Under the pieces are notes generated by a model, which saw only the letters and a program-made list of their open reading frames with translations, did no database searches and was not told the origin of the DNA. From assembly GCA_027024305.1 (NCBI GenBank), contig JALVSO010000027.1, forward strand, positions 1,959-25,958: a stretch of DNA of 24,000 nt, read 5' to 3'. Within the stretch, counting starts at the first letter, position 1. Each line of letters starts with the position of its first letter. Below, one piece after another: positions 2,090-23,826 of this stretch. The position numbers and the translations under genes are program-made. The stretch comes from Candidatus Parcubacteria bacterium (lineage in GTDB: Bacteria; Patescibacteriota; Minisyncoccia; Phycocordibacterales; GCA-2747955).

Positions 2090-3199
2090 ATGAAAAGAAT
2101 TTATCTTGGAGAGAAAAAAGATAAACTTTTAATCTTTTTAAATAAACATAAAAATAAATTTTCTTGAGGGACTTTTTTAGTTGGTTTTCTTTTTGATGTT
2201 TTTACCCTGAATAGAATAGATGCTCTCTATGGAAATTTGGTCCTGGGTTTCTATCTTTTTCTGGCCATTTTCCTGATTTTCTTAATAAATTGGGGGGATT
2301 ATAGGGGCATTAAAAATAAGTTTGTTTTTAAGCTTTACCAATATGCTCCCTTTGCTCTGCAATTTTCTTTTGGTGCCTTGCTTTCAGGTTTTGTAGTTTA
2401 CTATACAACCTCTGCCACTTTTTATAATTCCTGACCTTTTCTTTTGGCTCTCTATCTGTTTTTTATTCTAAATGAAAAAATAGAAAAGTACTATGAAAGA
2501 TTTGAATTTCAAATGGCGGTTTTCTTCCTGGCTCTCTTTTCATTTTCTATTTTTTTCCTACCGATTTTAACCAAGAGAATCGGCGATAAAATTTTTATTG
2601 CCAGCGGAGCTTTATCTGTCCTGTTTATTTTTTGACTGCTTCGTTTTATCTATAAAATTTTGCCCGTTTTGAAAAGACGAAGGTGAAAAGTAATCAGAAA
2701 TATCTTCGTTATTTTTGTTGTTTTTAATTTGTCCTATTTTTACAATATTATTCCACCGGTACCACTTTCGGCTAAAAGGGCGGAGATAGTTCACTGGGCC
2801 GGGAGAAATGAAGAGGGAAAGTATGAGCTCATTAGAGAAAAAAGAAAGTGAAACGATTTTAAAGACAGATTTTATAATATCTATTATCGCCGTCCGGGAG
2901 AAAAAGTCTATTTCTTTGTTTCCGTTTTTGCTCCCACGGATTTAAAAACAAAAATTATTCATCGTTGGCAGTATTATGATCCCCAAAAAAAAGAATGAAT
3001 TAACTATTCTAAAACAAGTTATCAAATTACCGGCGGTCGTGGCGGAGGTTATCGTGGTTATTCTTATATCTCAAAGGCTAAAGACGGGAAATGAAGAGTT
3101 AGTGTGGAAACACCCAGTGGTCTTTTAATAAATCGAGAATATTTTGAAGTTAAAAATATAGATAAAAATCTTAATTTAAAAACCGAGGTTTTAAAATAA
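2090..3199 (+). CDS. multi-pass membrane protein with DUF2914-like C-terminal domain (369 aa if TGA is sense)
   Basis: ATG at 2090. One frame joins tracked ORFs 2237-2434 and 2444-2635 and continues to TAA at 3197-3199 across 7 in-frame TGAs, with no in-frame TAA/TAG. The N-terminal two-thirds is hydrophobic. The C-terminus RWQYYDPQKKE[TGA]INY..GGRGGGYRGYSYISKAKDGK[TGA]RVSVETPSG resembles my memory of DUF2914. Confidence 0.65.
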
Positions 3200-4070: not shown

Positions 4071-4103
4071 GGTTTATATCTTTTTTACTGTTAAAATGGG
4101 AAA

Positions 4104-5858
4104 ATGAAACAGGAGACAGCTCTGAAAATTTTAAAGTCGGGACAGAATGTTTTTTTAACCGGATCCGCCGGAACCGGAAAGACCTATCTTTTAAATCAAT
4201 ATATAAATTATCTCAAAGAGAGAAGAATTCGTCCGGCCATCGTGGCCCCCACCGGCATCGCCGCTTCCCATTTGGACGGTCAAACCATCCACTCTTTTTT
4301 CGGTTTGGGATTGAGAAGCCAAGTGGATGACTGATTTCTGGATTCCCTTTTGCAGAAAAAATATCTCCACCAGAGGTTTAAAAATTTAAAGGTTTTAATT
4401 GTGGATGAGGTTTCCATGATTTCTCCGGAGCTGATGGAGAGTATGGATAAAATTTTAAGGGCTTTTAAATTTTCCAACAAGCCCTTTGGTGGAATTCAGG
4501 TTATTTTGTCCGGTGATTTTTTTCAGCTACCGCCGGTCAGTCGGGAAAGAAAAGCCAAGCGCTTTGCCTGGCAGGCTCCGGTTTGAAAGAGTTTAAATTT
4601 TGCCACCTGCTACCTTCAAGAAAAATTCCGCCAGGACGATGATAAATTGATCAATATCCTTGATGACATCCGCTCCGGGGAAATTTCCGAAGCCAGCTAT
4701 ACTTATCTGCAAGACCGTCACCAAGCCGAGTTGGAAAATTTTAGACCGACCAAGCTCTATACTCACAATGTGGATGTGGATCGGATAAATAAAGAAGAGT
4801 TGGACAAATTGCCGGGTGAGGAGAGGGTTTTTCTCTACACCTCTTCCGGCTCGGCTAAAAATGTGGAGAAAATTTTTAAATCATCACTTTTATTGGAAGA
4901 GGTGGTTCTGAAAAAAGATGCCGTGGTTCTCTTTATTAAAAATAATTTGGAGGAGGGTTATATCAACGGGACCACCGGCGTGGTGGTTGATTTTGACGAG
5001 GACGACGGTCTGCCCATCGTGGAGATATTTTCCGGCCGGAGAATTAAGGTTGCTCCCCTGGATTGAACCCTGGAAAATGAAAATGGAAAAATATTGGCCA
5101 CCGTTTCCCAAATTCCTCTGCGTTTAGCCTGAGCCATCACCATTCACAAATCCCAGGGAATGACTTTGGATGCCGCCGAGATTGATCTCAGCAAAACCTT
5201 TGAGGTGGGCCAGGGCTATGTGGCTCTTTCCCGAATCAGAAGTATTAAAGGTTTGCGCTTGCTTGGAATTAATGATACGGCCCTGCGGGTGGATCCTCTG
5301 ATTTTGCAGATTGAGGACCGAATGAAAGAGGCCTCCCAAAGATTTTCCGATGAGATGGAAAGTTACAGAGAGGAAGAATTAGAAAAAAAATTTAAAGATT
5401 TTATTTTAAAGGCCGGCGGGACCGTCAAGAAAGAAGAAATAGAAGAAGAGAGGGCTTTTTTGAAAGAAGAGAGGGAAAAGTTGGAACGAGCCCTGAAAAG
5501 CGGTGATGTGGAAATTGTTAAAAGAGAGAAAAAGCCGAATTACAAAATTACCGAGGAACTGATTGACCAAGTGGCTGATTTTCAAGAATTGGTTGAAAAA
5601 AGGGGTATGACCGCCGGCACTGTTATCGGACATTTGCAAAAAATCAAAGAAATGGATCCGGCCATAAATTTGGAGAAGTTTAAGCCGAACTGGGAGGTGG
5701 TGGATATGGTCCGGGAAGCCGTGGAGGACTTAAAAAAGGAAAATAAAAAAGAAAATTTTTTAGAGGACGGAACTTTAAAATTAAAACCGATTTTTAATGC
5801 TCTGGACGGGGAAGTAAGCTATGATGATATCAAGCTGGCTTTGCTTTTTATGGATTAA
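4104..5858 (+). CDS. PIF1/RecD-family SF1 helicase with C-terminal HTH-like tail (584 aa if TGA is sense)
   Basis: One frame joins tracked ORFs 4104-4334, 4350-4586, 4647-5066 and 5160-5858 across TGA at 4332, 4584, 5064 and 5130. Motifs: Walker A GSAGTGKT, Walker [18 protein letters not shown], and LRLA[TGA][13 protein letters not shown] (families have LAWAxxIHKSQG). TAA stop. Confidence 0.9.
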
Positions 5859-8856: not shown

Positions 8857-8891
8857 GAAAATGAGCGCGACCTGCGGTCGCGCTCATTTTC
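8857..8891. terminator. bidirectional intrinsic terminator between convergent genes
   Basis: GAAAATGAGCGCGACC-tgc-GGTCGCGCTCATTTTC. The A/T runs on both sides allow it to function on either strand. Confidence 0.8.
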
Positions 8892-9652
8892 TAACTTAAA
8901 CTTTCCCAAAGGGCTTCAAAAAGAAAACGATTTAATTTATAGATGTCTGGATCAGATATGATACTGGAAGTTAAACTTTTATTTTTAAAGGTTATATAGG
9001 CTACTTTTTGATTATAGATTTGATTAACCGCATAGAAATTTTTAATTTCGCCCCTTGGGGCTATTTTTATTTCCGTTAATTTGTTATTTTTGTTTTTTTC
9101 TAAGTATTTTCTGGCTTCCGGACTATCTATCATAATAATTTTCTTTTTGATTTTCTTTTTGATTCTTTCTTGAACATAGAGTTGGTCAATATCAGCTATT
9201 TCTTTTTCCAGGGTTTGGCTATCTACAATGGTGTAAATGATTTCGTCTTTAACCGATAGAGTTTCTTCTAAAACTTTCCTAACTCCTTCTTCGCCTTCAA
9301 AAAATTGCACTCCGGGTTTTCCGGCCGTCAGGTTGTATTGGGAAGTCAGGGCGTCAATGGTTGCTCCCAGCTCTTTTTGAGCTCTTTTAATTTCCGCTTC
9401 TTTCTTGAAAAGTAATTCTTCCAATTTGGAAGGGTGGGCCGGCAGAAACAGACCGGCGGAGCCGCTTTTTTTCTCTTTTTCTACCAATCCCAATTCCATT
9501 AATTCATCCAGAACCTTATAGGTTAGCTGTCTGGAAAGACCAACTTCCTTGGCAAGTTCTGAGCCTTTTTTCTTACCCCCCGATATCAAAAGGGAATATA
9601 TTTCAGCTTGGTTTTTACCCAGCCCAATTTCTTGTAATTTTTTATCAAACAT
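8891..9652 (-). CDS. TrmB-family HTH transcriptional regulator (253 aa)
   Basis: Intact ORF. The N-terminus LQEIGLGKNQAEIYSLLISGGKKKGSELAKEVGLSRQLTYKVLDELMELGLVEK fits the TrmB-type winged-helix pattern. TAG stop, no in-frame TGA. Confidence 0.7.
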   Translation of the reverse strand: MFDKKLQEIGLGKNQAEIYSLLISGGKKKGSELAKEVGLSRQLTYKVLDELMELGLVEKEKKSGSAGLFLPAHPSKLEELLFKKEAEIKRAQKELGATIDALTSQYNLTAGKPGVQFFEGEEGVRKVLEETLSVKDEIIYTIVDSQTLEKEIADIDQLYVQERIKKKIKKKIIMIDSPEARKYLEKNKNNKLTEIKIAPRGEIKNFYAVNQIYNQKVAYITFKNKSLTSSIISDPDIYKLNRFLFEALWESLS

Positions 9653-10498: not shown

Positions 10499-10527
10499 TT
10501 GACAAATAAATCAAAATAGTATATAAT
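10499..10527 (+). promoter_or_regulatory. consensus sigma70 promoter (TTGACA, 17 nt, TATAAT)
   Basis: TTGACA at 10499-10504 and TATAAT at 10522-10527, exactly 17 nt apart, inside a 900-bp AT-rich ORF-free region. Confidence 0.6.
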
Positions 10528-10533
10528 GCGGTC

Positions 10534-10700
10534 AGATTTTGAAAGATTGGGAAAAATTATGAAGGAGAGAGCATAATTTTTCTGAGAAAAGGAAAGGCTT
10601 TGAGAGACAAATCCAAAAATGGATTTATCTCACAAGGTCTTTGTTGACCGACCTCGGTCAGTGAAGAAAGCACTCTCTCCACGGGAGTGCTTTCTTTTTC
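10534..10700 (+). ncRNA. candidate ~165-nt small RNA (consensus promoter to intrinsic terminator)
   Basis: Bounded by the promoter above and the terminator GAAAGCACTC-9 nt-GAGTGCTTTC plus T5 (10666-10699). It contains a perfect 11-bp hairpin GAAAAATTATG-aaggagagag-CATAATTTTTC with an SD-like loop. No credible ORF. Family not recognised. Confidence 0.4.
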
Positions 10701-10736
10701 CCAGAAAAATTATACTTCGGAAATTTCTCAATCTTT

Positions 10737-10933: not shown

Positions 10934-10982
10934 TTTGTAAAGAAAAATTCGTTTCTTTGACAAAGGTTTTAAAAAATACTTC

Positions 10983-11012
10983 TTAACTGAAATATTTTTT
11001 AAACAATATAAT
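10983..11012 (+). promoter_or_regulatory. putative promoter at the AT-rich/GC-rich transition (TTAACT, 18 nt, TATAAT)
   Basis: TATAAT at 11007-11012 and TTAACT at 10983-10988. It would start transcription ~11020, reading into the structured region and the hammerhead. Confidence 0.4.
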
Positions 11013-11019
11013 GTCAAAA

Positions 11020-11563
11020 TTTGTTAAAGATCCCCGGAAAAGAAGCCGGACTTGTCAGGTATGGTTCGGCGTGTGGTTGCTGACAAGTCCGGCTTCGTGA
11101 AAACTCCGGTCAGATCTTTGGCGGATTTTTGGAAAAAATATGGATTGCTTCCCTCCACATCCGTTCCTCTCGCAATGACGACCACCGGAGGTGGTCGTTG
11201 GGACGGCGACCTGCGGTCGCCGTCATTACGAGGAGCTCGCGACGAAGTAATCCATGCAGACATTCGTCACCGTTATGTATTTTTCAAGATACCCGGTTTG
11301 TCGGCAATCACACGCCTAACCATACCCAACAAACCGGGTATCAATTTTTTCCAAAAATCCGCCCCAGGGTGGAAACAAAATGGAGGCGATGACACTGCCA
11401 TTTTTGAAGCTAAACAAAAGGTTTTAGATTCAAAAATGGCAGTGGGGCTCGTAGAGAGCGGGGCTACCCCGGCGAGGTAAACAAACTCGTCCTTGGTGAA
11501 ATTCCAAACATTGCCTTCAAATACAGAGAAGTTCAGCGTGGTTCGTTGAGCTTCTCTGCCGTC
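11020..11563 (+). ncRNA. candidate ~540-nt highly structured RNA ending at the hammerhead cleavage site
   Basis: No plausible ORF (the tracked ORFs here are Arg/Pro-rich shadows). Perfect 17-bp hairpin at 11042-11058/11080-11096. 19-bp long-range helix GGCGGATTTTTGGAAAAAA (11120-11138) / TTTTTTCCAAAAATCCGCC (11345-11363) enclosing hairpins at 11178-11198 and 11202-11224. 14-bp hairpin GATACCCGGTTTGT/ACAAACCGGGTATC. 16-bp hairpin CACTGCCATTTTTGAA/TTCAAAAATGGCAGTG. Confidence 0.45.
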
Positions 11564-11609
11564 CCGGAGTGTGCGCTCCGGCTGATGAGTCCAAAAGGAC
11601 GAAACGGTA
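11557..11609 (+). ncRNA. type III hammerhead self-cleaving ribozyme
   Basis: UGCCGUC|CCGGAG-ugugcg-CUCCGG-CUGAUGA-GUCC-aaaa-GGAC-GAAA-CGGUA. The full catalytic core is present (CUGAUGA, GAAA, GUC cleavage triplet). Stem I is 6 bp with a closed loop and stem II is 4 bp with G10.1-C11.1. Stem III is open and 6 bp (ACGGUA/UGCCGU, one G-U). Predicted cleavage is between 11563 and 11564. Confidence 0.85.
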
Positions 11610-11810
11610 AAATTGTCACGGTATGACTGCGGGATAACGAGGAAGCGACGCGGAATGACGCTGAAAAGTCCACCCTGACAAAAATAACGAAGTCCGACTT
11701 CGTTGCCTGTTCCGAAGCGAGATTTTAGCGATAAATTCTTGTCGCTAAAATCTCGCTCTTCGGAGCGAAAAGGTTCCGGCGTGTATTCGCCGGGTAAATT
11801 TAACTGAAAA

Positions 11811-11881
11811 TCACCGAGGCAAATATCCCCTATAAGCTGAAGATTATCCTTCAGTGAAATGGGGAGAATAAGCCGAGGTGA
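11811..11881 (+). promoter_or_regulatory. three-tier stem-loop in the 5' UTR immediately upstream of the RBS of the next gene
   Basis: TCACC..GGC / GCC..GGTGA, TCCCC/GGGGA and CTGAAG-attatc-CTTCAG are nested. It ends 6-14 nt before the AGGAGAG RBS and ATG 11895, and it covers the alternative ATG at 11859. Confidence 0.4.
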
Positions 11882-11894
11882 TCAGGAGAGAAAG

Positions 11895-12272
11895 ATGGCC
11901 AAGGTCATCCGTATCTCCCGCCACCCGCTGGGTGGTGATCGGGAGGCGGCTCTCAAGGCCGCCTTCGGCGATGACGTGGAAATCGTCACCGTCGATGTTC
12001 CCTATGGGGACGACCCCGTTGCCACCGTCGGTCAGCTGATTGACCGGGAAGGGGATGTCGTGGCCGTTGAGGCCCAGGCGCCCTTTCCGGTGACCATGAA
12101 GCTGGTCGACGCGAACCGGAAGCTGGGTGTTAAGTTCGTCCGCGCCGAATTCAAGCGCGGTGCGGATGGACGGGCTGTTGTCGTTGGTCAAGACGACAAT
12201 GGTCGCGACATCCTGGCTTTCGATCGCTACGTGGAGTTGCGTCGTATCGTTATTGATACGGCGGAGCTCTAA
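11895..12272 (+). CDS. hypothetical protein (125 aa)
   Basis: ATG 11895 is preceded by CAGGAGAG. The tracked ORF starts at 11859, but that ATG lies inside the stem-loop without an RBS. Protein-like composition (MAKVIRISRHPLGGDREAALKAAFGDDVEIVTVDVPYGDDP...). TAA stop. Family not recognised. Confidence 0.65.
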   Translation: MAKVIRISRHPLGGDREAALKAAFGDDVEIVTVDVPYGDDPVATVGQLIDREGDVVAVEAQAPFPVTMKLVDANRKLGVKFVRAEFKRGADGRAVVVGQDDNGRDILAFDRYVELRRIVIDTAEL

Positions 12273-13430
12273 CGGGCGACCGGCCGGGTGGCGGCGGTAC
12301 CGGCAACGTCAAGCCGGGCGTGCAGCTATGCGCGGTGGTAACGGTGAGCAACGGCTCATCATTCCGAAAGCCGATAATGGCAAATAGTGGGGATTCCGCT
12401 CCCCTTGTAGCGGGATTGACTGGAGGAGGATAATCCGATGGACAATTAGTAGCGCCGAGTCCTGGCGCCATAACAGAAATGAGGACAGCCAAAAGTGAGT
12501 GGTTTCACTTTTGGTGACCCCGGGAGGAGGGCGGCTCCTCTCAGTCGTGCACTATGCACGCAACCGTCCGAGGCGGTTCCTCGGCATGGCCTTAGGGAGG
12601 ACCTATGGCTATTTAAAAAGGCGCCTGGAGACAGGGGCGCCCGATAAATACCACTCCCTCGGGGGCAGGACGAGTTCCGGGAGAAGGGGTGAGAAGTTGC
12701 TAGCCCCGGGATATGAGACCTGCCATCATATTCCGAAATCGAAGCAACTATTGGTTGACTCCCGAGCGTGGTTTGTTCGGGGGCTTTATTGAGTCGGTAA
12801 TTTTAGATTATCGGCTCATAGAGCAAGAGGGGGGGTTGCCTTTCTCCTCCCATTCAGTTTCAAGAAGTACGGATAACTTCTTGAACCTCCGGGTCGTGCT
12901 CGGAGTTTGAATAAAAATCGGTCGGCAAAGGATTGCCGACCGGTTAGAATGACTCGGAGAAGCTTAGTTGGTCGGGCTTCTCTTAAAAAAAGTTACCATG
13001 GGGCTTAATGGCTCCATGGTAACCGGACCAACCCTCCACATTGGAGGAAAATAGGGTGTTGTTTCCTTCACCCTCCCAATTCTGAGAGTCAAGGACTACT
13101 CTCAGGATCTTCGCAAGGCGGAGTTTGGGAAAGTTTTCCATAAAAGGAATTTATGGAAGACAAAGGAAACTCGGGCCCTTATAACCGGAGGGCCTTAAAG
13201 GTAGCCCCCGCCTTGGTTAGGCGGGGGTTAGGTTGCTCCCCCGAGATGGATTTCGGGGGCTTTATTGGGCAGATCTGTTTTACAGGTCTGTCCATAGAGA
13301 ATTGAACAAACTCTTTCACCTGACTTTCTCTTCTGCAAAGAAAGTCATTGAAGGGTGGAAGGGGTTAAATTTTAATAGGGCTCAGGCCCCTCCGCCGCGC
13401 TTTTTTCATGGGCGCGGAGCAGACGGAGCA
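12273..13430 (+). ncRNA. ~1.15-kb ORF-free, hairpin-dense region (candidate large structured RNA or array of small RNAs)
   Basis: At least 9 perfect 7-10-bp hairpins: 12489-12514, 12860-12884, 12919-12942, 12992-13023, 13082-13105, 13205-13227, 13238-13259, ~13321-13347. Two are terminator-like units ending ...TTCGGGGGCTTTATTG (12758-12795, 13238-13269). The tracked ORFs here have non-protein-like composition. Strand is assumed from the neighbouring genes. Confidence 0.4.
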
Positions 13431-13447
13431 CCTTAAGGAGGTGAAAC

Positions 13448-13687
13448 ATGAATGAAGACAAAAAAAAAGAGGTGGAGTGGGTCTTGGCCAACTTCACCAA
13501 GGAGGAGGTCCTCGGGGAAATCGAGGATCTGGAAAGGCGAATCCCACTTGAGTGGGAGGACGCTAATGATGCATATTCCGAGCCCTGTGCGGGCGCGGAA
13601 TCGAACTATTATTCAATAGTTCGAGGAATCGACGAAATGGAGGAGCGCCTGGAAGCGTTCCGGGAAGCATATAGGCTCCTCCAGTAG
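13448..13687 (+). CDS. small acidic hypothetical protein (79 aa)
   Basis: Strong RBS AAGGAGGTGA 7 nt upstream of the ATG. TAG stop, followed by an intrinsic terminator. Confidence 0.65.
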   Translation: MNEDKKKEVEWVLANFTKEEVLGEIEDLERRIPLEWEDANDAYSEPCAGAESNYYSIVRGIDEMEERLEAFREAYRLLQ

Positions 13688-13708
13688 ATTTAGATTCCTG
13701 TGCACATT

Positions 13709-13757
13709 TCCCGAGCGGTGGTGTTGTAGTGACATTACCCGCTCGGGACTTTTTTTG
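13709..13757 (+). terminator. intrinsic terminator, CCGAGCGG-hairpin family copy 1
   Basis: TCCCGAGCGG...CCGCTCGGGA 10-bp stem with an inner GTA/TAC helix, followed by CTTTTTTT. It is near-identical to 18115-18160. Confidence 0.8.
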
Positions 13758-13782
13758 AAAATTCAAAAATTTGAATTTTCAA
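13755..13782. promoter_or_regulatory. perfect 13-bp inverted repeat TTGAAAATTCAAA-aa-TTTGAATTTTCAA (operator-like)
   Basis: Exact palindrome read directly. It lies between the terminator and the module-end repeat. Confidence 0.4.
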
Positions 13783-13802
13783 AGAAGGGATTTCCGGGGA
13801 AC

Positions 13803-13875
13803 AAATCTTTTGCAACGTTTTTGAACGTCCCAGGGACGTACCGGAATTTGGATTTGAATCTGCCTAGAGTTTTTT
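13803..13875 (+). repeat. module-end repeat, copy A1 (short version)
   Basis: AAATCTT...TGAACGTCCCAGGGACGTACCGGAATTTGGATTTGAATCTGCCTAGAGTTTTTT. It shares the ACGTCCCAGGGACGT palindrome and the GATTTGAATCTGCYTAGAG+T-run tail with 22168-22320 and 23826-23978. GC content drops immediately after it. Confidence 0.75.
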
Positions 13876-13896
13876 AGAAATTTAAAAAAGAAAATT

Positions 13897-14088
13897 ATGA
13901 AAGAAATTATATTTATAACATCCATCATTTCAGGTCTCCTGATATTTTTTATCTTTATTTTCTCTTTGGATTTGGATGCCGGAATTATGGCTATTTTGGC
14001 AGCCTTTTTTGGTTCGGCCTATAACCGGTTATATCTTTTTCTAAATCATTTATTTAGAGAAAAACATCCGGAGAAAAGTGAGTTTTAA
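13897..14088 (+). CDS. possible small two-TM membrane protein (63 aa) in an AT-rich patch
   Basis: Intact ORF with hydrophobic segments (IIFITSIISGLLIFFIFIF, IMAILAAFFG). Weak RBS. Its AT-rich composition is unlike the flanking GC-rich blocks. Confidence 0.4.
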   Translation: MKEIIFITSIISGLLIFFIFIFSLDLDAGIMAILAAFFGSAYNRLYLFLNHLFREKHPEKSEF

Positions 14089-14126
14089 AATGTCTTTTGA
14101 AATGAAAACAGCTAGTCTTGCATTTT

Positions 14127-14174
14127 CCGAGCGGTATTTTGTTGACAAAACTTTGCCGACAAAATACCGCTCGG
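14127..14174. repeat. 16-bp perfect hairpin of the CCGAGCGG family (no T-run)
   Basis: CCGAGCGGTATTTTGT-16 nt-ACAAAATACCGCTCGG. Its outer arms are the same as the two terminators at 13709 and 18115. Confidence 0.6.
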
Positions 14175-14345
14175 GAGAGTGGTGAATTGGCTTTTGCAGA
14201 GCCCATCTTTAGTCTGAAAGCATAGCTGCAAAGAATATGCTTTCTGGGTGATCCGCGACCAACAAGACTGCGGGGAGTGCTAGGTTCTGAACTTCCAACA
14301 ATAGGAAGGAATGAAGCGCTCAAGCTCAAAATTCGGAGGTGAATA

Positions 14346-15458
14346 ATGAGCAAAAAAAACATTGCGGAGCTGGCTCCGCAAAAAAATGTGGCGGAAAAGA
14401 TTTCTCAGGCTCTGTCTGAGAATTTTATCCGCTCCGAGAGAGTTGCCCGTATTCTCGCCCTTGCGGTGGAATCGGGCAAAAATGTATTACTTTGGGGGCC
14501 GGGCGGACACGGCAAGTCCGAGATGGTGGAGCTTGCGCTCGCGCAAGTCGCCGACTCGGACGACGTGTTCGTCCAATCCTTTGGCGAGGGCATGGATGAG
14601 GCAACCCTTTGGGGTGGCCTTGATTTCCAGGCCCTCGAGTCGGAAAAGGTGCTTCGGTATTTTCCGGAGCAAAGCTTCCTTGCGAAGCCTTTTGCCGTCT
14701 TTGAGGAGATCTTTGACGCCCCGGCGTCGGTTCTCCTCGCCCTGAAGGATACCCTGACGGCGCGCAAGCTCCGCAAGGGTGGTCAACAATTTCCTATGGA
14801 AACCAAAGTGATCATCGCGATCACCAACAAGGATCCGGAGGAAATTTCTGACCTCGGCCCCGCCGCAGCTGCTCTGGTGGAGCGGTTCCCGCTCCAGCTC
14901 AATGTAGATTGGGACTCCTATGAGGCCCGGGACTACACCGAGCTGTTTGATAAGGTCGGATCTCGGCTCCCGGGGGCGGATCTCAACGGCACCCAGCGGG
15001 TGCTGGCGGAGATTATCGCCAAGGCTTCGGCCGATGGCGATATTATTTCACCCCGCACCGCGGTTCACGCCCTCGGCGTGGTCAAGACCGCGGCGGCCCT
15101 GCGAGGCTCAGACCGGGTGGAGAAGGAGGACCTGGTGGACCTCCAGTACCTGCCCGGCATGGAGGACCTGGCGGATAATATCCGTCAGGAGTTGGACGCC
15201 GCCTACGAGCGGGCCGAGGCAGAGCGCCGGCTGGTTGCGGCCGAGGATCGGTTGCGTGAACTGTTGGCGGAGCTCCACGACGCAACGACGCCAATCAAGG
15301 CACTCCAAGTTGCTCGCCGCCTGCAGTCTCTGCAGGACGACACCAGCAACCTGAAAGTGCCGGACGGTCTCACCGACCGGCGCAAAAACCTGCGCAACTC
15401 TATCAGCGAGAAGGTGCAAGCGGCGCAGGAGCTTGCCCTTCAAAACACCCGCATCTAG
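14346..15458 (+). CDS. MoxR/CobS-like AAA+ ATPase (370 aa)
   Basis: RBS GGAGGTGA. Walker A LLWGPGGHGKSE, Walker B-like AVFEEIFDA, and sensor-like IIAITNKD and ISPRTAV. C-terminal coiled-coil-like tail. TAG stop. Confidence 0.8.
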   Translation: MSKKNIAELAPQKNVAEKISQALSENFIRSERVARILALAVESGKNVLLWGPGGHGKSEMVELALAQVADSDDVFVQSFGEGMDEATLWGGLDFQALESEKVLRYFPEQSFLAKPFAVFEEIFDAPASVLLALKDTLTARKLRKGGQQFPMETKVIIAITNKDPEEISDLGPAAAALVERFPLQLNVDWDSYEARDYTELFDKVGSRLPGADLNGTQRVLAEIIAKASADGDIISPRTAVHALGVVKTAAALRGSDRVEKEDLVDLQYLPGMEDLADNIRQELDAAYERAEAERRLVAAEDRLRELLAELHDATTPIKALQVARRLQSLQDDTSNLKVPDGLTDRRKNLRNSISEKVQAAQELALQNTRI

Positions 15459-15473
15459 CGGGAGGAGGAAAAA

Positions 15474-16850
15474 ATGAACTTTACGTTCAGAACAACTCCT
15501 CCCGCTACCTATATCCCTCCGAACTCGGAGGAGATGCGGGAGGTCGCGGCTAAGGTCGGGCTGAAGGGATTCAGCCGCGACCTGGTCGCGGACCTGTGTA
15601 ACCTGGCGGCGGGGGGAGCAATCCAACCCCCGTCGGCGTATCGGGAAATCGTACACCGGCAGGTGGAGGAAAAGCTCCCTGCCCCCGATAGCGATGGCGA
15701 GTGGTCGGTTGGAGGTGGCTACACCAAAGACCGTCTGCAAGCTATCAATCACCGCCTGGAAAAAGCGATGAGATACCATCAGAATGTCTGCGATTTCTTG
15801 CAGACGGTGGACCTCAGCGCCTTTCCCGGCCGAAGCCCCCTTGAGCAGGCCATGAGCTTGCTCAAGCTGCTTTCCAAGCAGGAGGGTGGCTCCGGCGGCG
15901 GTGAGGGGGGCGAGCCCCTGCCCATCTTCCAGGACAATGATCGTCCGGAAGGTGTCGCCGAAAAACTCCATGAGACCATGGAGTTGGCGGAGTCGCTGGA
16001 CGAGACCGAGCAGGAGATGCTCGATCCGGATGGTGACTGGCAGGAGGATGCCGAGCAGGATGGACAGGAAACCGGCTCCTCGGGGCTTCAAGCCCTGAAG
16101 GTTGCCGAGGACCTGGTCGACGGGAGTGACAAGCGCGCCATGCTTGAGATTTCCCGTCAGCTTGACCAGTTTACCAAGCTGCAAGTGCGGCGACAAAAAC
16201 TGGTCAAGCCAGATCCTACCGGCGACGAAATCCGAACCCGGGGCATCAAGCATCTTGGAGAACTCGGCAGAGTCTCCAAAAGTGCTTGGGCCACCCGCCA
16301 ACAACAGCCGACGTACTTTTTGTACCAGGCTGTGACCGGTCAGCTCCCCGTTCGGGAGCGGGTGACCCGCCAGGAGAAGAAACAGGCGATCTTCATCCTG
16401 GTTGACGGCTCCGGGTCTATGGAGGGCCGCAAACACCACAAGGCCACGGGGGTGGTGATGAACCGCCTCAAGGCAGTGGTGGACGGCGACGCGGAGGTTT
16501 GGGTTTCGGTCTTTGACACCGAAATGTCCAATCCAATGCATGCCGGAAATGCGGAGGAGGCCCGGGAACTGATCAAACAGTTCCGTCATGGCAACTTCCG
16601 CGGCGGCGGCACCGACATCGCCAGCGCGGTGAAAGCCGCGCACGCCTTCATTGAGGAAAAGATGAAGGCGGGCGAGGCGCTTTGGAGACCGGAAGTGGTA
16701 GTCCTCACTGATGAGGACAGCTCCACGCAAGGTCTCCGCAAGTCTGAGGTCAAGGGCACTCGTGTCCACGGATTTGCAATCGAGCGCAAAAACAAGCCGC
16801 TGGTGACTTTTGCCAAGTCAACCGGCGGCGTGGGGATTGAAAACTTTTAG
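15474..16850 (+). CDS. von Willebrand factor A (vWA/MIDAS) domain protein (458 aa)
   Basis: RBS GGAGGAGG. It starts 15 nt after the AAA+ gene. C-terminal vWA domain with the MIDAS motif ILVDGSGSM plus GGGTDI and VVVLTDED. Acidic linker. TAG stop. Confidence 0.8.
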   Translation: MNFTFRTTPPATYIPPNSEEMREVAAKVGLKGFSRDLVADLCNLAAGGAIQPPSAYREIVHRQVEEKLPAPDSDGEWSVGGGYTKDRLQAINHRLEKAMRYHQNVCDFLQTVDLSAFPGRSPLEQAMSLLKLLSKQEGGSGGGEGGEPLPIFQDNDRPEGVAEKLHETMELAESLDETEQEMLDPDGDWQEDAEQDGQETGSSGLQALKVAEDLVDGSDKRAMLEISRQLDQFTKLQVRRQKLVKPDPTGDEIRTRGIKHLGELGRVSKSAWATRQQQPTYFLYQAVTGQLPVRERVTRQEKKQAIFILVDGSGSMEGRKHHKATGVVMNRLKAVVDGDAEVWVSVFDTEMSNPMHAGNAEEARELIKQFRHGNFRGGGTDIASAVKAAHAFIEEKMKAGEALWRPEVVVLTDEDSSTQGLRKSEVKGTRVHGFAIERKNKPLVTFAKSTGGVGIENF

Positions 16851-16874
16851 TTGAATATCCTCTGGTTATTTTCT

Positions 16875-16920
16875 GTGAAACTTGGCTTGGTGTGGTGCCA
16901 AGTCAAGTTTCACTTCTTTA
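16875..16920 (+). terminator. probable terminator after the vWA gene
   Basis: GTGAAACTTGGCTTGG-tgtggtg-CCAAGTCAAGTTTCAC (16 bp, one G-U) followed by the U-rich TTCTTTAT. Confidence 0.55.
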
Positions 16921-16970
16921 TCAAGCATCCAAAATGGTTTGGGTGCTTGTAGAGAAAAGGAGGTGAAAAA

Positions 16971-17012
16971 ATGAAAAATCGGGATCCTCCGATGATGCCC
17001 GAACTCGGCTAG
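16971..17012 (+). CDS. possible 13-codon micro-ORF (MKNRDPPMMPELG) with a very strong RBS
   Basis: AAGGAGGTGA lies 6 nt upstream of the ATG and the ORF ends in TAG. It sits at the start of a 0.7-kb non-coding region. It could be a leader peptide or coincidental. Confidence 0.25.
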   Translation: MKNRDPPMMPELG

Positions 17013-17564
17013 GGCTAAAACACTCTGAGGCCGACGGTTGGGCCGAGACACCGTTGGGGCGATGTTCCTGCCGATGGAGCCCGTTTCAGTATATTTCAAG
17101 ACCGGAGAGCTGCTGACTCTTTGATGGCTTGGGATATGGTAAAGCTGAATGGCCGGGTGATGCCGGTAAAACAAACATCAACACGAAGCAATGGTTAGAG
17201 AACATCCAGCCAAGTGTATTGCCCGTGCAAAAAACGGGTGTATAAAAATCTCAACTCCGGTTTTCCCGGGGCGGCATGGTGTCGTAGATACGCAATGCGG
17301 CACTTAACCTCTTACTAACGGAGGATGGTTATGCGTATAAGGGACCCCCCTTAGGTTTTGGTCATTTTCATTCTAATAATTATTGGAGTGGAAATGACCT
17401 TGGATAGAGGAAGTGCTTGGTAGTGCTTCCTCTCTACTTTTGGGAATATAACTTTTAGGAGTTGTATTTCCAAGGAGTGGATTTTTCTCTTTTAGTGAAG
17501 CGGGATAGAGAGCCTGAAGTTTTTTGGGTTTTGTCTTCCGTTTCACTAATTTAGGGAGGGTAGT

Positions 17565-18107
17565 ATGGAATTTTTTTCTAAGGATGGAGGTGTTGTTGTT
17601 GTGCCGTGGGGCACACAGCAACACCTCCGCGCTCACCCGGACGTCTTGGATGTCCTGGGTGAGGCAATTTCAAAAATTGAACTCCCCACGGATGGGGAGT
17701 TTCTGAAAACGACCGTTGATCTGGGAAGGGTTATCGGTCGTTCCGGGGCGGTGGAGACCGACCCGATTCAATACGACGAGCAGACCTGGTTTGCCCATCG
17801 TATTGGGCGGGACGGACCTTCACGTGTTGTTTTGGACACGGAAGGTCCGGAGGTTTCCACCGTTGCGATCCTGGCGTTCCAAGCCAGGGATCGCAGCACC
17901 GGGAAAATCCAGCCGGGCAAGTACATCCTTGCTACGGCATGGATCGGCTCGGCGGAGGCCGAGCGAGAGCCCTGGGACAAGGGCATAAAAACAGAGCGGG
18001 AGCGCCAAGCCGCACTGCGGTATTGGTGCTCCCATGCTCTGGTCTATGACAAGGAGGTCATGGACAAGCCCTTCCAATCTTCATGGAAGGAGATTTTGGA
18101 AGGGTGA
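17565..18107 (+). CDS. hypothetical protein (180 aa)
   Basis: RBS GGGAGGG. Globular-looking composition. Apparent TGA stop followed by an intrinsic terminator. Family not recognised; the N-terminal HLRAHPD is only a weak hint of a nuclease-type His motif. Confidence 0.65.
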   Translation: MEFFSKDGGVVVVPWGTQQHLRAHPDVLDVLGEAISKIELPTDGEFLKTTVDLGRVIGRSGAVETDPIQYDEQTWFAHRIGRDGPSRVVLDTEGPEVSTVAILAFQARDRSTGKIQPGKYILATAWIGSAEAEREPWDKGIKTERERQAALRYWCSHALVYDKEVMDKPFQSSWKEILEG

Positions 18108-18114
18108 ATCTTTT

Positions 18115-18160
18115 TCCCGAGCGGTGGTGTTGTGGTGACATCACACGCTCGGGACTTTTA
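18115..18160 (+). terminator. intrinsic terminator, CCGAGCGG-hairpin family copy 2
   Basis: TCCCGAGCGG...CGCTCGGGA followed by CTTTTATT. The inner helix GTG/CAC covaries with GTA/TAC in copy 1. Confidence 0.75.
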
Positions 18161-18206
18161 TTGTGCCGGTAACTTTCCAAGTTACGGGCACATAGAAGTT
18201 TTTCAT

Positions 18207-18324
18207 TTTTTTTCACGGACTCCCTTGTCCGTTCAATTGTGCCGGTGATGAACCGGAAGTCCTACGGGGCGCGAACAGACAAGGGGCTTGCCGAAAGGTG
18301 AGTGTTCTGTTCGTGGAGAGAGAA
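18207..18324 (+). promoter_or_regulatory. structured 5' leader, copy 1 of 2
   Basis: ~95% identical to 19042-19159. It contains ACGGAC-tccctt-GTCCGT, CCGG-tgatgaa-CCGG, and GAACAGA...[CUUGCC-GAAA-GGUGAG]...UCUGUUC, then the GGAGAGAG RBS. Confidence 0.6.
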
Positions 18325-19041
18325 ATGAAGGCGTTGGAAAAAATCAACATCGCCGCGCCGTTTGTTTTCGCTGCAGTGGAGTCGATTACCCTGATAGAGC
18401 CCTCTATTTGGAGGGCGAATGCCGACATCCGTTTTTATATGGATATCTGGTATTCGATTTGGGTGGTCAGTGTTGGGATGCAATACGCTCCGAAATGGGC
18501 GATTGCATTTCTTACATGGTCTCTATTGCCACCGCTCCTCGGTGTGTACGAGGGGGCGAGGTACGAAAACGCATCCGATGCATTTTTGCGCCTTGATGCG
18601 TTGATTTGCGTAGGGTTTTTGCTCTACGAAATAGCAATCATAGAGGTTGCCCATCACCACTTTGAAAAAGTTTTTGGATGGCTCCTGCCGTCCAAATATG
18701 AGGTGGTGGAGCGCATCGGTGTATCATGGATGATCCGGTGTTACAAGGAGTTGTATCGCCAAATGGCGCGATGGTGGAAGGTTGGAGGAAATCATGGATT
18801 GATGATTCTTTGCGCCTTAAGTTTTGCCAAATTCTTTGGTAACTCGGGACAAAAAAGAGGGAATTTGCTTCTCCACGAGATTGAGACCAGTGAAGTCTCA
18901 GTTCGTATCGCCGACAATGGAGATATAGTTTTGTCGGCAAGCAAGCGGACCCTAGACGTCGCAACCATTGCGATACGAAAGGCGGAGGAAGGCGGATTAA
19001 GCGCCGCCGTTGAATTCCTCCATTCGCACGCGGAAGTTTGA
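18325..19041 (+). CDS. hypothetical membrane protein (238 aa)
   Basis: ATG 18325 follows the GGAGAGAG RBS; the tracked start at 18298 lies inside the repeated leader. Several hydrophobic, Trp-rich segments. Apparent TGA stop at 19039-19041. Confidence 0.65.
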   Translation: MKALEKINIAAPFVFAAVESITLIEPSIWRANADIRFYMDIWYSIWVVSVGMQYAPKWAIAFLTWSLLPPLLGVYEGARYENASDAFLRLDALICVGFLLYEIAIIEVAHHHFEKVFGWLLPSKYEVVERIGVSWMIRCYKELYRQMARWWKVGGNHGLMILCALSFAKFFGNSGQKRGNLLLHEIETSEVSVRIADNGDIVLSASKRTLDVATIAIRKAEEGGLSAAVEFLHSHAEV

Positions 19042-19159
19042 TTTTTTTCACGGACTCCCTTGTCCGTTCAGCTTTGCTGGTGATGAGCCGGAAGTCCTGC
19101 GGGGCGCGAACAGACAAGGGGCTTGCCGAAAGGTGAGTGTTCTGTTCGTGGAGAGAGAA
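19042..19159 (+). promoter_or_regulatory. structured 5' leader, copy 2 of 2
   Basis: It starts immediately after the preceding stop codon. About 6 substitutions relative to copy 1, including CCGG>CTGG, which keeps pairing as G-U. Confidence 0.6.
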
Positions 19160-22100
19160 ATGAGCAACAAAAAGTTGCCGGTCGCGGAGTTCCGCGAGCA
19201 AATCGTTTCAACCGTTGCCTCTAATCCGGTAACGGTCATTACAGCTGAGACCGGCGCGGGCAAGTCCACGCAGGTGCCTCAGTACCTGCTGGACGAGGGT
19301 TACAACATCGTTGTGACCCAACCCCGGCGGTTGGCTGCTCGGACTGTTGCCGAGCGCGTGGCCGAGGAATACGGTTGCGAGTTTGGCGATATCGTTGGCT
19401 TCCGCACCGCCCATGACCGCCAGGACAGCGACAACACCCGTTGTCTTTTTGTCACGGATGGTCTGGCGCTGGTGCGTGAGCTTATGGGTGCCGGCACCCA
19501 CGACTGCCTGATTCTTGATGAGGTTCACGAGTGGAACCTCAATATTGAGGTACTCGTGGCGTGGGTGAAGAAGCAGGTCGCCCGGAATCCCAAATTCAAA
19601 GTGGTGCTGATGAGTGCCACTTTGGAGGCGGAGAAGTTGGCGAGCTTCTTTGGCGGTGCGCCCATCATTGAGGTGCCGGGACGTACCTTCCCCGTGGAGG
19701 AGCGCAAAGTCGGTGAAAGCCTGCACGACGACATTGTTGAGCTTGCTCGGCAGGGTCGAAATGTGCTGGTTTTCCAGCCCGGCAAGGCAGAAATTGAGGA
19801 AACCGTCAGGTACCTTGAAAATCTGCCGGACCTGGACGCCAGGGTTTTGCCGCTTCACGGTGGCTTGACCAAGGAGCAGCAGGCGGCGTGCTTCAAAAAC
19901 TATCACCAACCGAAGATTGTCGTCAGCACCAATGTCGCGCAGACATCGGTGACCATTGATGACATTATTGCGGTTGTTGATTCCGGGATGGAGCGCCGGG
20001 TGGAGCTGGTGGACGGGGTTGAGGGCTTGTACCTGCGCCCCATTTCACTGGCCGATGCCAAGCAGCGCCGGGGGCGTGCCGGCAGGACCAAGCCGGGGAT
20101 TTATATCGATCACTGCCCGGCCAAGCCGGAAGATCGGCGTGAGTTCCCGATGGCGGAAATCCTGCGGGTGCGCCTGGACCAAACCGTTCTCCGTTTGGCT
20201 ATGGCTGGCTTTGATATGGAGGAGCTTCGGTTCTTCCATCAGCCCAATATTGCTGAAATCCATGAGGCCAAGCGTGCTCTGCATGCTCTGGGTTGCATGG
20301 ATGAGAACGGGAAGGTTACGGAGGTTGGTCGCGCTGTTTCCCGTTTGCCGGTCTCCGTTCAGTATGGGCGGATGATTGTGGAAGCGGAGAAGCTCGGGGT
20401 TGTGGGCGATGTTATCAAGATCGCCGCAATTCTGGAGCAGGACGGCATCACCGCCCGCAAGGTCAAATTGGATGACCGCTGGGTGGAGGCTAAGCCTCTG
20501 TGGCTGCCGCTGACCAACGGGGAGAAGGAGTCGGACGCTCTGGCTCAGCTCAATGTGTATGAAAATGCACAGAGCATGAGCAAGTCCCAGATGTATGAGT
20601 CTGGGGTCTTCGTGAAGGACTTTTATTTCGCGAAGGAGCGAGTTCGCCTCCTGAAAAAAGCGCTGGAAAGGAGGGTTCGTCATATGGACTCAACCGGAAA
20701 GCGCGAGGACATTCTCCGGGCGGTTCTTGCCGGGATGGTGGATCACTTGTATAAGTATAATTACGGTGATTACCAAAACGGCGATGGGGTCAACCGCCGG
20801 ATCAACAAGGATTCCGTTGTATCTGGTGGCGACTGGATTGTCGGTAAACCCTTTGACCTGGAAATCAACGGTCGTTACGGACCGTTCACCATTAATTTGG
20901 TGACCATGGTCACAAAGGCGGACCCGATGATTCTGGCGGAAGTGGCACCCCAGCTGGTGACCATTGAAGCCGGTCTTTCTCCGCGATACAGTGTCGATCG
21001 AGGGTGTGTGGTATCTACCACAAAAACGCTCTTCAACGGCATGGTTATCAAGGAGGAGGAGGTTGATGACATCAACCATCCCGAAGCGTCGGCCATCCTG
21101 GATGAGCAGGCATGGAAGGAGTGGAAAGGTCCGGAGATTCTGGTTCCCGATTTCAGTTTGGCGGGTGAACTGCCGGCTGAAATTCCGGAAATCCGCGAGG
21201 AGGTCTATATCAAGTCGCGGGTGGATGGTCGTCCACTTTCTGCCTATGGGGTCGTTTATCATGACTCCTGGTCTGGTTGGAAAAGTAAGTGGACGCGGGA
21301 CCGGAAGGAGGCCGAAAGTCTCCACGAGCAAGCCGAGAAGAAGCTTGCCGAACTCCGGAAACAAAAAGCCGTCCGCGACTGTATTGAGCGCGAGCTTGAT
21401 GCGGTCAACCGTCGCCGGGAGGCGATCGGTTTGTCTCCGATTAAAATGCGGGATTCCGGTTTTTCTCACAACGGTTGGTCGCGAGACTATACCGAGGAGA
21501 AGTGGGAGAAGGTATTGCAGGAGACGGCGGATAAGGAAGCCGAGGCGGCTGCTGAGCGGGCCCGGGCCGAGAAGGAAGCCAAGGAGGCACGCCTCATTGA
21601 GGAAGGTGCCTTTACCGGTTTCACCGGGGTCTGGTGCCGTCGTAGTGGCTCCAACCAGGGTGATGGCTGGGTCATTCGTCCGGGCGGTTCTTTTCGGGAG
21701 CACGACTCCATTGATAACCCTCGTCCGCGTTACAAGAGTGAAGGGTATAAGTCGTGGAATGTTGTGCGCCCGGATGAACTGGCCATTTCCTGGCGGAAGC
21801 ATACCCGGGCCTCCGAACACGAGTTCGAAGTTGCTCATCTGCCGGAGTCTTTGACTGCCGAGCAGGTGAAGGCGATGGAGACTCTGCTGGAAGAACTGGA
21901 GGAGGCTTGGGACGGCGCCACCGGCCTGGCTTCGGGCAAGAAGAGCCCGAGCGTTGGTGAGGGTTGGGTTAACCCTGAGACGGGCGAAAGTCTGACCAAG
22001 GGGTTCCGGACCTCTCGTCAAAAGCGGGAGGGTTCCGAGGCTAGCTGGACCGGAAAGGCCGGAGGGGTTGAAGAGGAGACCAACTCCGTTGTTTATGAGA

Positions 22101-22162
22101 CGGGAGAGGTTGATTTCAATAATCCCTTCGCCGCTCTGGCCGCCCTGAAGGGGAAACTCTGA
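19160..22162 (+). CDS. DEAH/RHA-family (HrpA/HrpB/DHX-like) helicase with a long uncharacterised C-terminal extension (1000 aa)
   Basis: ATG 19160 follows the GGAGAGAG RBS; the tracked start at 19010 runs through the leader repeat. Motifs: TAETGAGKST, ILDEVHE, SAT, TNVAQTSVTIDD, QRRGRAGR. These are followed by HA2/ratchet-like and OB-like regions (WIVGKPFD...MVTKADPMILAEVAP). About 380 aa follow with a Lys/Glu/Ala coiled-coil and no family I recognise. Apparent TGA stop. Confidence 0.85.
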   Translation: MSNKKLPVAEFREQIVSTVASNPVTVITAETGAGKSTQVPQYLLDEGYNIVVTQPRRLAARTVAERVAEEYGCEFGDIVGFRTAHDRQDSDNTRCLFVTDGLALVRELMGAGTHDCLILDEVHEWNLNIEVLVAWVKKQVARNPKFKVVLMSATLEAEKLASFFGGAPIIEVPGRTFPVEERKVGESLHDDIVELARQGRNVLVFQPGKAEIEETVRYLENLPDLDARVLPLHGGLTKEQQAACFKNYHQPKIVVSTNVAQTSVTIDDIIAVVDSGMERRVELVDGVEGLYLRPISLADAKQRRGRAGRTKPGIYIDHCPAKPEDRREFPMAEILRVRLDQTVLRLAMAGFDMEELRFFHQPNIAEIHEAKRALHALGCMDENGKVTEVGRAVSRLPVSVQYGRMIVEAEKLGVVGDVIKIAAILEQDGITARKVKLDDRWVEAKPLWLPLTNGEKESDALAQLNVYENAQSMSKSQMYESGVFVKDFYFAKERVRLLKKALERRVRHMDSTGKREDILRAVLAGMVDHLYKYNYGDYQNGDGVNRRINKDSVVSGGDWIVGKPFDLEINGRYGPFTINLVTMVTKADPMILAEVAPQLVTIEAGLSPRYSVDRGCVVSTTKTLFNGMVIKEEEVDDINHPEASAILDEQAWKEWKGPEILVPDFSLAGELPAEIPEIREEVYIKSRVDGRPLSAYGVVYHDSWSGWKSKWTRDRKEAESLHEQAEKKLAELRKQKAVRDCIERELDAVNRRREAIGLSPIKMRDSGFSHNGWSRDYTEEKWEKVLQETADKEAEAAAERARAEKEAKEARLIEEGAFTGFTGVWCRRSGSNQGDGWVIRPGGSFREHDSIDNPRPRYKSEGYKSWNVVRPDELAISWRKHTRASEHEFEVAHLPESLTAEQVKAMETLLEELEEAWDGATGLASGKKSPSVGEGWVNPETGESLTKGFRTSRQKREGSEASWTGKAGGVEEETNSVVYETGEVDFNNPFAALAALKGKL

Positions 22163-22167
22163 GGGGT

Positions 22168-22320
22168 GGATTTGGGAGGAGGTGTTGGTTACACCTTCCT
22201 CCCTCCGGCTGTCATTTCTGGCAGCCGGGCTTTATAGCGGGTTTAAATCTTCTGAACGTCCCAGGGACGTACCGAACCCAGGGACGTACCGGATTTGAAT
22301 CTGCTTAGAGTTTTTTTGGA
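22168..22320 (+). repeat. module-end repeat, copy A2 (153 bp)
   Basis: It differs from 23826-23978 at only 2 positions. Layout: hairpin GGGAGGAGGTGT-tggtt-ACACCTTCCTCCC, hairpin CCGGCTG..CAGCCGG, then ACGTCCCAGGGACGT with a tandem duplication of CCCAGGGACGTACCG, then GATTTGAATCTGCTTAGAG plus T7. Confidence 0.85.
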
Positions 22321-22531
22321 AGATTTTAGGGAATAATTTTATAAGAATTTTAAAAGTAAATTAGTATTTCCCTCTTTGTATTTTTAGGAATATAAAGAGG
22401 GGGTTGTTAATACCCTCGTGCGTCTTAGCCGTTTAGGCTGTGCTCGACGCACAGCCCATGCAGAGGCATGGGTTAATTATGTGCCTGCGGGGATAGCCTT
22501 CATGGCTTGAAACGCGGGTGGAGGTCCTGAA

Positions 22532-23371: not shown

Positions 23372-23604
23372 TCGAACTTCGCCACCGAGAGTGAAGTGAA
23401 ATAAAGTGCTCGGCCCGGTGCCTGCGTGGTGCAGGCGCCGGGAGGTTTGAGGCAAGCTTGGTTAAGTTTGCCTTTCTTATTCCGATTGCAAGGGTGTTTC
23501 TTTGCGGTCGGATAGGAAATTAGTCGCCGGGCTTTGTTGAGAGGTTCGGCAAAAATCAACTTTGCGGTGAGGGTAAAGACCCAACAATCCGCGGGAGACC
23601 AGCC

Positions 23605-23826
23605 ATGGCAGAAATATGCCATAATATAAAATGGGCACTAATCTGCCCATGGTCCTACGTCGTCATCCACCCGAACGGATACACCGTTCTGGTGGACAGG
23701 TACGAATGGAATCGTTTGGCAGAGGCCAAGGAAAGGGCCTATGAAGAGAACCAAAAAACCGATGCATATCTGCATCGGGTGTATGGGCCGTTTTGGCGCC
23801 CATATATTGATTCCAAAATATGTTAG
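23605..23826 (+). CDS. small Trp/Tyr-rich hypothetical protein (73 aa)
   Basis: Intact ORF with a GGGAGA RBS-like sequence. TAG stop, followed directly by repeat copy A3. Confidence 0.5.
   Translation: MAEICHNIKWALICPWSYVVIHPNGYTVLVDRYEWNRLAEAKERAYEENQKTDAYLHRVYGPFWRPYIDSKIC

Follow-up and report, generated by a model that had tools for sequence, protein, structure and literature searches.

A type III hammerhead ribozyme near the left end of a GC-rich island in a Candidatus Parcubacteria genome

A genuine type III hammerhead ribozyme is present in a 24,000-nt stretch of DNA from a Candidatus Parcubacteria bacterium, one of the ultra-small Patescibacteria (assembly GCA_027024305.1, contig JALVSO010000027.1, positions 1,959 to 25,958 of the forward strand; hereafter the window). 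An identical sequence has been assembled from SRR13622960. It is located in a GC-rich island, about 0.5 kb from the left end, upstream of a gene without assigned function that is referred to here as gene X, and is the only hammerhead in the window and in a second assembly (L062) that covers the right part of the island. The ribozyme is very probably active. With moderate confidence, it is considered to process the first mRNA of the island during transcription, or to insulate it, and would in this way free it from the terminal-repeat region that precedes it.

The complete type III fold can be read directly from the sequence. Stem III pairs UGCCGU (11557-11562) with ACGGUA (11604-11609) in six base pairs, one of them G.U, and is the only open helix. 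Stem I consists of CCGGAG (11564-11569) and CUCCGG (11576-11581), again six pairs, closed by the loop UGUGCG, while the four pairs of stem II (GUCC, 11589-11592; GGAC, 11597-11600) are closed by AAAA. The core is formed by CUGAUGA (11582-11588) and GAAA (11601-11604), with G11561-U11562-C11563 as the cleavage triplet, and U11562 is paired with A11604. The conserved catalytic core of this class (C3-U4-G5-A6-N7-G8-A9, G12-A13-A14, A15.1-U16.1 and an N-U-H triplet) is therefore complete and surrounded by three helices, with G10.1-C11.1 closing stem II. An earlier note on this DNA, generated from the letters alone, had described a canonical type III hammerhead with all core nucleotides and both the G10.1-C11.1 and A15.1-U16.1 pairs; its description, including the coordinates, the topology and a predicted cut at 11563/11564, agrees with this reading throughout. 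When the 57-nt segment 11555-11611 is folded in isolation, the minimum free energy (MFE) structure is exactly the hammerhead secondary structure (-22.1 kcal/mol).

Covariance-model searches point to the same element. All 4227 families of Rfam 15 were compared with both strands of the window by cmscan, and the sole match at E<=0.01 was to RF00008 (Hammerhead_3), with 45.7 bits, E=3.1e-7 and coverage of the whole model (1-54 of 54). The element aligns to the RF00008 core without a mismatch and shares with this family the GUC triplet, the three helices and the open stem III, but it is more compact; in the alignment to the model, 4 nt of loop II are deleted and 5 nt are inserted in loop I. Because this compact form, with four nucleotides in loop II and six in loop I, costs score, the match falls 2.8 bits short of the Rfam gathering cutoff of 48.5, and a scan of the window at default gathering thresholds is consequently empty. 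A covariance-model score below threshold was among the refuting conditions named in the earlier note; formally this condition applies, although the match is highly significant. A covariance model constructed from 38 phage copies alone, with the window left out, assigns the window 79.8 bits and also detects two copies in a Saccharibacteria metagenome-assembled genome (MAG).

These phage copies were collected from IMG/VR with the exact sequence CTGATGAGTCCNNNNGGACGAAACGG, taken from the 3' half of the window hammerhead. The pattern occurs at 50 IMG/VR loci, from which come 38 distinct sequences with the full type III architecture of the window: a stable hairpin, CCGUC, a 6-bp stem I, a loop of 6-7 nt starting with U, and the core. 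Because the search for relatives used the 3' half of the window hammerhead, independent evidence comes only from the 5' half, which comprises the 5' strand of stem III, the GUC, stem I and loop I; stem II is invariant by construction of the pattern. It is in this independent half that the observed covariation falls. An alignment of 39 sequences shows complete pairing of stem I (100% of cells) with both-sided changes at all six pairs; the covariation score reaches 0.445, compared with 0.126 for shuffled alignments and no more than 0.096 with slid partners, and the stem III pair 5-56 covaries as well.

The hammerhead is preceded by a 15-bp hairpin that abuts stem III with an overlap of 2 nt (the gap being scored as 1 nt in the family comparison) and holds two G.U pairs that exist on the + strand only. 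In 39 of 43 distinct loci, a stable hairpin (median -16.4 kcal/mol) ends 0-6 nt ahead of stem III. Hairpin and hammerhead form a two-part module, and in the genomes of tailed phages this module is common between co-oriented genes. Of its copies, L035, L020 and L055 are the closest. They reside on contigs with terminase and portal genes, have the same architecture, nearly the same sequence and a preceding stable hairpin, and are followed by the next start codon after about 25 nt; L035 shares with the window the loop-I motif GUGUGCGC, loop II AAAA and the tail GAAACGGUAAA, and differs mainly in stem I pairs. Among 185,579 species genomes, the pattern with a GGTAA tail had a single match, in the Candidatus Saccharibacteria MAG (UBA4727, L061), which carries two divergent copies 2.3 kb apart (818-873 and 3132-3179) of the same kind, one of them between a hairpin and the next Shine-Dalgarno sequence and ATG. 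At most phage loci the module follows a co-oriented ORF (open reading frame) by tens of nucleotides and often stands only 20-30 nt before the next. In L020, L035 and L061 it follows a small protein gene, with the next start codon about 12-25 nt on, whereas in the window about 500 nt of ORF-free palindromes precede the module. In many other loci the next ORF is 18-30 nt away, and in some phage loci 200-700 nt; across the wider IMG/VR set this distance extends to several hundred nucleotides. As further observations on this family, one phage contig (L052) contains three family hammerheads within 1.9 kb (11838-13750), and two IMG/VR "contigs" of 366-377 nt with the same core (L019 and L024) may be viroid-like circles.

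The ribozyme is a single copy located just inside the left terminal repeat and is co-oriented with the island genes. As the earlier note had stated, the co-oriented downstream gene is the first ORF of the island, and its figure of about 330 nt to the start corresponds to 331 nt between the predicted cut and the ATG of gene X at 11895; from the end of the ribozyme to this ATG the distance is 285 nt. A simple consensus scan revealed no promoter-like site between the ribozyme and gene X. The features of this region are collected in Table 1.

Table 1. Features around the hammerhead ribozyme, in window coordinates.
Feature	Position	Strand	Details
Promoter-like site TTAACT-18 nt-TATAAT	10983-11012	+	Consensus scan, 10/12; consensus match only
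20-nt repeat ATAATGTCAAAATTTGTTAA	11008-11027		blastn-short; exact inverted copy (20/20) near the right end of the island, L062 6143-6162
Hairpin A, 17-bp perfect stem, 21-nt loop GTATGGTTCGGCGTGTGGTTG	11042-11096		Left copy of the island terminal inverted repeat
Left arm of 20-nt perfect inverted repeat	11120-11139		100% complementary to 11344-11363; MFE fold
Hairpin B	11288-11342		Diverged inverted copy of hairpin A, by alignment
Right arm of 20-nt perfect inverted repeat	11344-11363		Partner of 11120-11139
22-bp hairpin, 95% complementary	11393-11444		Within the ORF-free structured stretch
15-bp hairpin before the hammerhead	11524-11558	+	dG -24.2 kcal/mol; conserved 5' partner of the module
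Type III hammerhead ribozyme	11557-11609	+	Stem III open; stems I and II loop-closed
Predicted self-cleavage site	11563/11564, 3' of C17 (C11563)	+	From the GUC position in the hammerhead alignment
Structured leader, 285 nt	11610-11894	+	Fold z=-9.7; palindrome 11712-11762; shared motif ~11826-11880
Gene X, 125 aa, function not assigned	11895-12272	+	First ORF of the island; 35 homologues; GC at codon positions 1/2/3 0.75/0.38/0.70

Based on these features, the following course of events may be envisaged. RNA polymerase would start at the island edge, at the promoter-like site, or read in from the host, transcribing first the palindrome-rich terminal region and next the ribozyme. The ribozyme would fold and cut itself after C11563 while the transcript is being made, and the two products would part because stem III is short (4-6 bp). 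The upstream, non-coding piece would end in the 15-bp hairpin and CCGUC with a 2',3'-cyclic phosphate, while the downstream piece would be the mRNA of gene X, possibly together with later island genes, with a 5'-OH and a fixed leader of 331 nt. By such a cut, the first island mRNA would become independent of the terminal repeats and the upstream context, in the manner of ribozyme insulators, and the two RNAs would have different stabilities or fates. In insulators of the RiboJ type, a self-cleaving ribozyme of the hammerhead type stands between a gene and a variable 5' region and fixes the 5' end of the mRNA regardless of the upstream sequence; RiboJ is an engineered element located immediately ahead of the ribosome-binding site, and insulation at the present locus is something we infer. 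The proposed release of the mRNA matches the role put forward for prophage hammerheads, which flank genes, cleave both in vitro and in vivo, and have been suggested to process mRNAs (PMC3088659; PMC6765202).

Several observations weigh against co-transcriptional processing of the first island mRNA, or at least temper it. Apart from the RF00008 score below the gathering cutoff and the ascertainment of the phage relatives by the window's own 3' half, the start of transcription at the island edge is a consensus match only, and a terminator-like hairpin with a U-run at 11322-11350 could halt some transcripts before they reach the ribozyme. In addition, two features of the module at most phage loci are lacking here: there is no co-oriented coding gene tens of nucleotides upstream, and 285 nt instead of tens of nucleotides separate the module from the next start codon. 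Given these differences, the local role of the module may not be the one it has in phages.

The alternative that survives best, although still unlikely, is that the hammerhead mainly makes the 3' end of a discrete, functional structured noncoding RNA (ncRNA) of about 540 nt (about 11020-11563), which would then act by itself. The earlier note had likewise placed a large structured RNA upstream of the ribozyme. The description of this stretch stands: 11020-11556 is ORF-free in practice, extremely palindromic and folds far better than its shuffles on the + strand (-277.9 kcal/mol, z=-23.6; - strand, -258.6 kcal/mol, z=-14.1), but a discrete functional RNA is not supported. The proposed size of about 540 nt derives from the promoter-like site just upstream, from which a start would put the 5' end of the transcript near 11020, and at the other end the 15-bp hairpin and the cyclic phosphate would provide a protected 3' end. 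The only ORF in the stretch (11052-11480) matched nothing but itself among 5.8 billion proteins, and its GC content at the three codon positions is flat (0.55/0.49/0.48, compared with about 0.7/0.4/0.7 in real island genes); with neither relatives nor coding-type GC periodicity, it is not a credible protein gene.

Against such an ncRNA stands, first, the composition of its helices, which are near-pure Watson-Crick and equal on the two strands, with G.U accounting for 10 of 188 pairs on the + strand and 14 of 189 on the - strand. In the other long intergenic regions of the island, 49-54 G.U pairs on the + strand compare with 14-16 on the - strand, with a strand gap of about 94 kcal/mol. Second, relatives are lacking. 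No Rfam family matches 11020-11556, the best non-hammerhead matches (E>=0.015) being to microRNA models on simple hairpins; blastn searches of phages with 11000-12300 and of plasmids with 11000-13450 returned no match; and the conserved hairpin-loop motif is found neither in viral contigs nor in metagenomes. A looser 17-base loop pattern gave 38 metagenome matches, which are attributed to chance because none of them has the flanking stems. Third, the first hairpin of the stretch recurs inverted at the other end of the island, where the reverse complement of L062 6415-6475 is 59/61 identical (97%) to 11039-11099, and this points to a repeat acting at the DNA level. Within the stretch, the pairing of 11120-11139 with 11344-11363 closes a 244-nt multi-hairpin domain; in hairpin B, the stem has changed with compensation relative to hairpin A, while the loop is kept and is complementary to loop A. 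The simplest reading of much of 11020-11556 is a terminal repeat region of the island that would act as DNA, and that may be transcribed too if the promoter-like site is used.

A second alternative, which we regard as rather improbable, is that the hammerhead is an inert passenger from phage-derived DNA without a role in the island. In line with a passenger, it is a single copy in the island, and the loci of gene X homologues do without it. Rfam, a regular expression for the core and the family model all gave no hammerhead in nine such loci, including a closely related island fragment (L007). Hence the ribozyme does not belong to a conserved leader of gene X but is a separate module present at the edge of this island. 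Homologous loci without the core were another refuting condition of the earlier note, and formally this condition applies too; the true relatives of the hammerhead are the modules of phages and the candidate phyla radiation (CPR). On the other hand, a decaying copy should show core changes, whereas all core nucleotides and all pairs of stems I, II and III are intact, as is the companion hairpin with its G.U pairs specific to the + strand.

It is also conceivable, though quite a long shot, that the released RNA of about 540 nt is a structured RNA derived from the element's end that serves island mobility, copy control or regulation. Such an RNA would carry the terminal-repeat hairpin A and the kissing-complementary hairpin B. 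Guide RNAs derived from the ends of IS110 and IS605 offer a loose parallel, except that here a hammerhead rather than a protein would set the 3' end. Finally, a multi-ribozyme system for RNA excision and circularisation (viroid- or retrozyme-like) or for VIPR-like dicing of guide arrays is close to excluded: despite the circular-sized contigs L019 and L024 with the same core and the description of hammerhead-interspersed vrRNA arrays (bioRxiv 10.64898/2026.04.26.720920), neither a second hammerhead nor any other Rfam ribozyme is present in the window or the right part of the island, and GGY/NN repeat arrays are absent from both strands, with no run of at least four GGYNN units and no in-phase enrichment.

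The island itself stands out from its host by both composition and genetic code. The host half of the window (1 to ~10130) has 27-45% GC, and its genes, including PheT, a PIF1-type helicase and others (e.g., 3-2033 and 4095-5858), are intact only if TGA is read as sense; five host ORFs contain 26 in-frame TGA codons, and none of the five ends in TGA. In the helicase, three of four TGAs align with Trp residues of human PIF1, which indicates that TGA encodes Trp (code 4) and not Gly as in Gracilibacteria and Absconditabacteria. The relatives of PheT are named Patescibacteria, Pacebacteria or Kaiserbacteria, and the closest are also fragmented in standard-code gene calls. From ~11020 onward, the genes have 50-65% GC and all lie on the + strand. 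No in-frame TGA occurs in ~2800 codons of island genes (11895-23826 and L062 5071-6036), and three of ten island genes (the 180-aa gene, the 247-aa gene and the helicase) end in TGA. The GC-rich block is thus a standard-code island within a TGA=Trp genome. In such a host, the three genes ending in TGA would be read through.

L062 runs beyond the window and shows that the GC-rich block ends ~1.2-1.6 kb past it, followed by low-GC DNA. As delimited by the terminal repeat and the GC content, the island is about 14.5 kb long. The direct repeat TTCTTTGACAAAGG (14 nt) is found in the window at 10951-10964 and at the right end in L062 (6472-6485), and the order of the end repeats is not a simple mirror image. 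An N gap in L062 (6270-6368), flanked by a duplicated 55-nt stretch, is probably a scaffolding artefact. The search for an empty site in host relatives covered two contigs with the closest PheT genes, which are not syntenic downstream; for this reason the borders are not fixed by an empty site. Recognisable island genes encode a MoxR ATPase, a vWA protein and a DEAH helicase, along with a protein that jumbo phages also have and a DHH hydrolase with matches to CRISPR-accessory models, while no recombinase was recognised by Pfam, PHROGs, PADLOC or PDB sequence searches.

Several noncoding regions of the island and its surroundings deserve mention. Two ORF-free intergenic regions fold much better on the + strand than on the - strand: 12273-13447 (-543.7 kcal/mol with 54 G.U versus -450.4 with 16) and 16851-17564 (-293.0 kcal/mol with 49 G.U versus -199.2 with 14; z=-9.6). 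Neither matches an Rfam family, and as candidates for large structured RNAs both rank above the stretch that precedes the ribozyme. Near-perfect long palindromes with arms of 19-23 bp (CGAGCG..ATTTT...) are located upstream of island genes (11712-11762 and 14127-14174; also L007 253-303) and could be operator sites or RNA hairpins. Repeated regulatory cassettes of island genes (18207-18328/19042-19163, 22168-22320/23826-23978 and 13707-13757/18113-18163) consist of 95-99% identical leaders and repeated terminator hairpins; two island genes share even their first codons (...VLFVEREM), and some cassettes are common to the related fragment L007 with 83-86% identity. In the host part just before the island, 10499-10720 holds a perfect sigma-70 consensus (TTGACA-17 nt-TATAAT, 12/12), followed by ~180 nt without a + strand ORF of at least 50 aa and ending in a hairpin and T-run, and is a candidate small RNA.

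The 35 homologues of gene X are mostly from Patescibacteria, and a protein-based search of viral contigs revealed no relatives. In L007, the homologue follows the terminator of another gene and a repeated regulatory cassette. The leader of gene X contains a motif common to the window (~11826-11880), L007 (~1120-1170 and ~405-455) and L008 (~55-105), which is situated ~15-25 nt before the Shine-Dalgarno sequence and consists of AAUAYC, P1, UAUAAG, a hairpin with a covarying stem, YGAARU, P1' and RGAAUARG. It has no Rfam match and precedes unrelated genes, namely gene X and a STIV_B116-like gene.

As regards the genomic neighbourhood, homologues of gene X adjoin Csx3 (L004 6627-7577) and a STIV_B116-like gene (L007 477-791), and the DHH protein of the island (22532-23371) matches the PADLOC models C3a116 and "DHH_CorA" (CRISPR type III accessory). 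Judged from these families, the neighbourhood of gene X may be linked to cyclic-oligoadenylate signalling or counter-defence. A TrmB-family regulator is encoded divergently upstream of gene X in the window (8891-9652 on the - strand and 11895-12272 on the + strand), and the same arrangement is found in two other genomes, L002 (3672-4427/6001-6399) and L009 (853-1605/1778-2182), with TrmB identity of ~31-32%. In the window, regulator and gene X lie on opposite sides of the GC and code boundary.

Hammerheads of bacteria and phages have been catalogued since 2011, and their biological roles have been described as unresolved (PMC6765202). The ribozyme in the window is a new example of those known from prophages and mobile DNA and, as these have been known for so long, is not expected to surprise a specialist. 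Like the prophage and phage hammerheads reported by Perreault et al. in 2011 (PMC3088659), it is intergenic, resides in mobile or foreign DNA and is co-oriented with a neighbouring gene, and the processing of long transcripts is the proposed role in both cases. The published examples, however, often occur in twos or threes flanking genes and many are of type II, whereas the window holds a single type III ribozyme with a non-coding upstream neighbour. In VIPR vrRNA arrays (bioRxiv 10.64898/2026.04.26.720920), hammerheads cut ncRNA from a longer transcript in a setting of phage conflict, but these arrays have GGY/NN repeats and repeated ribozymes, both of which the window lacks.

The locus offers a clean, single-copy case in a little-studied lineage, in which a ribozyme parts the terminal-repeat region of an island from its first gene. 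The comparative set indicates that the ribozyme travels with a conserved upstream hairpin, which fits a cut by which the 3' end of the upstream RNA would be protected. Possibly of more interest than the ribozyme itself are its surroundings, which comprise a standard-code island with inverted terminal hairpins in a TGA=Trp genome, together with large structured intergenic regions (12273-13447 and 16851-17564) whose fold is specific to the + strand.

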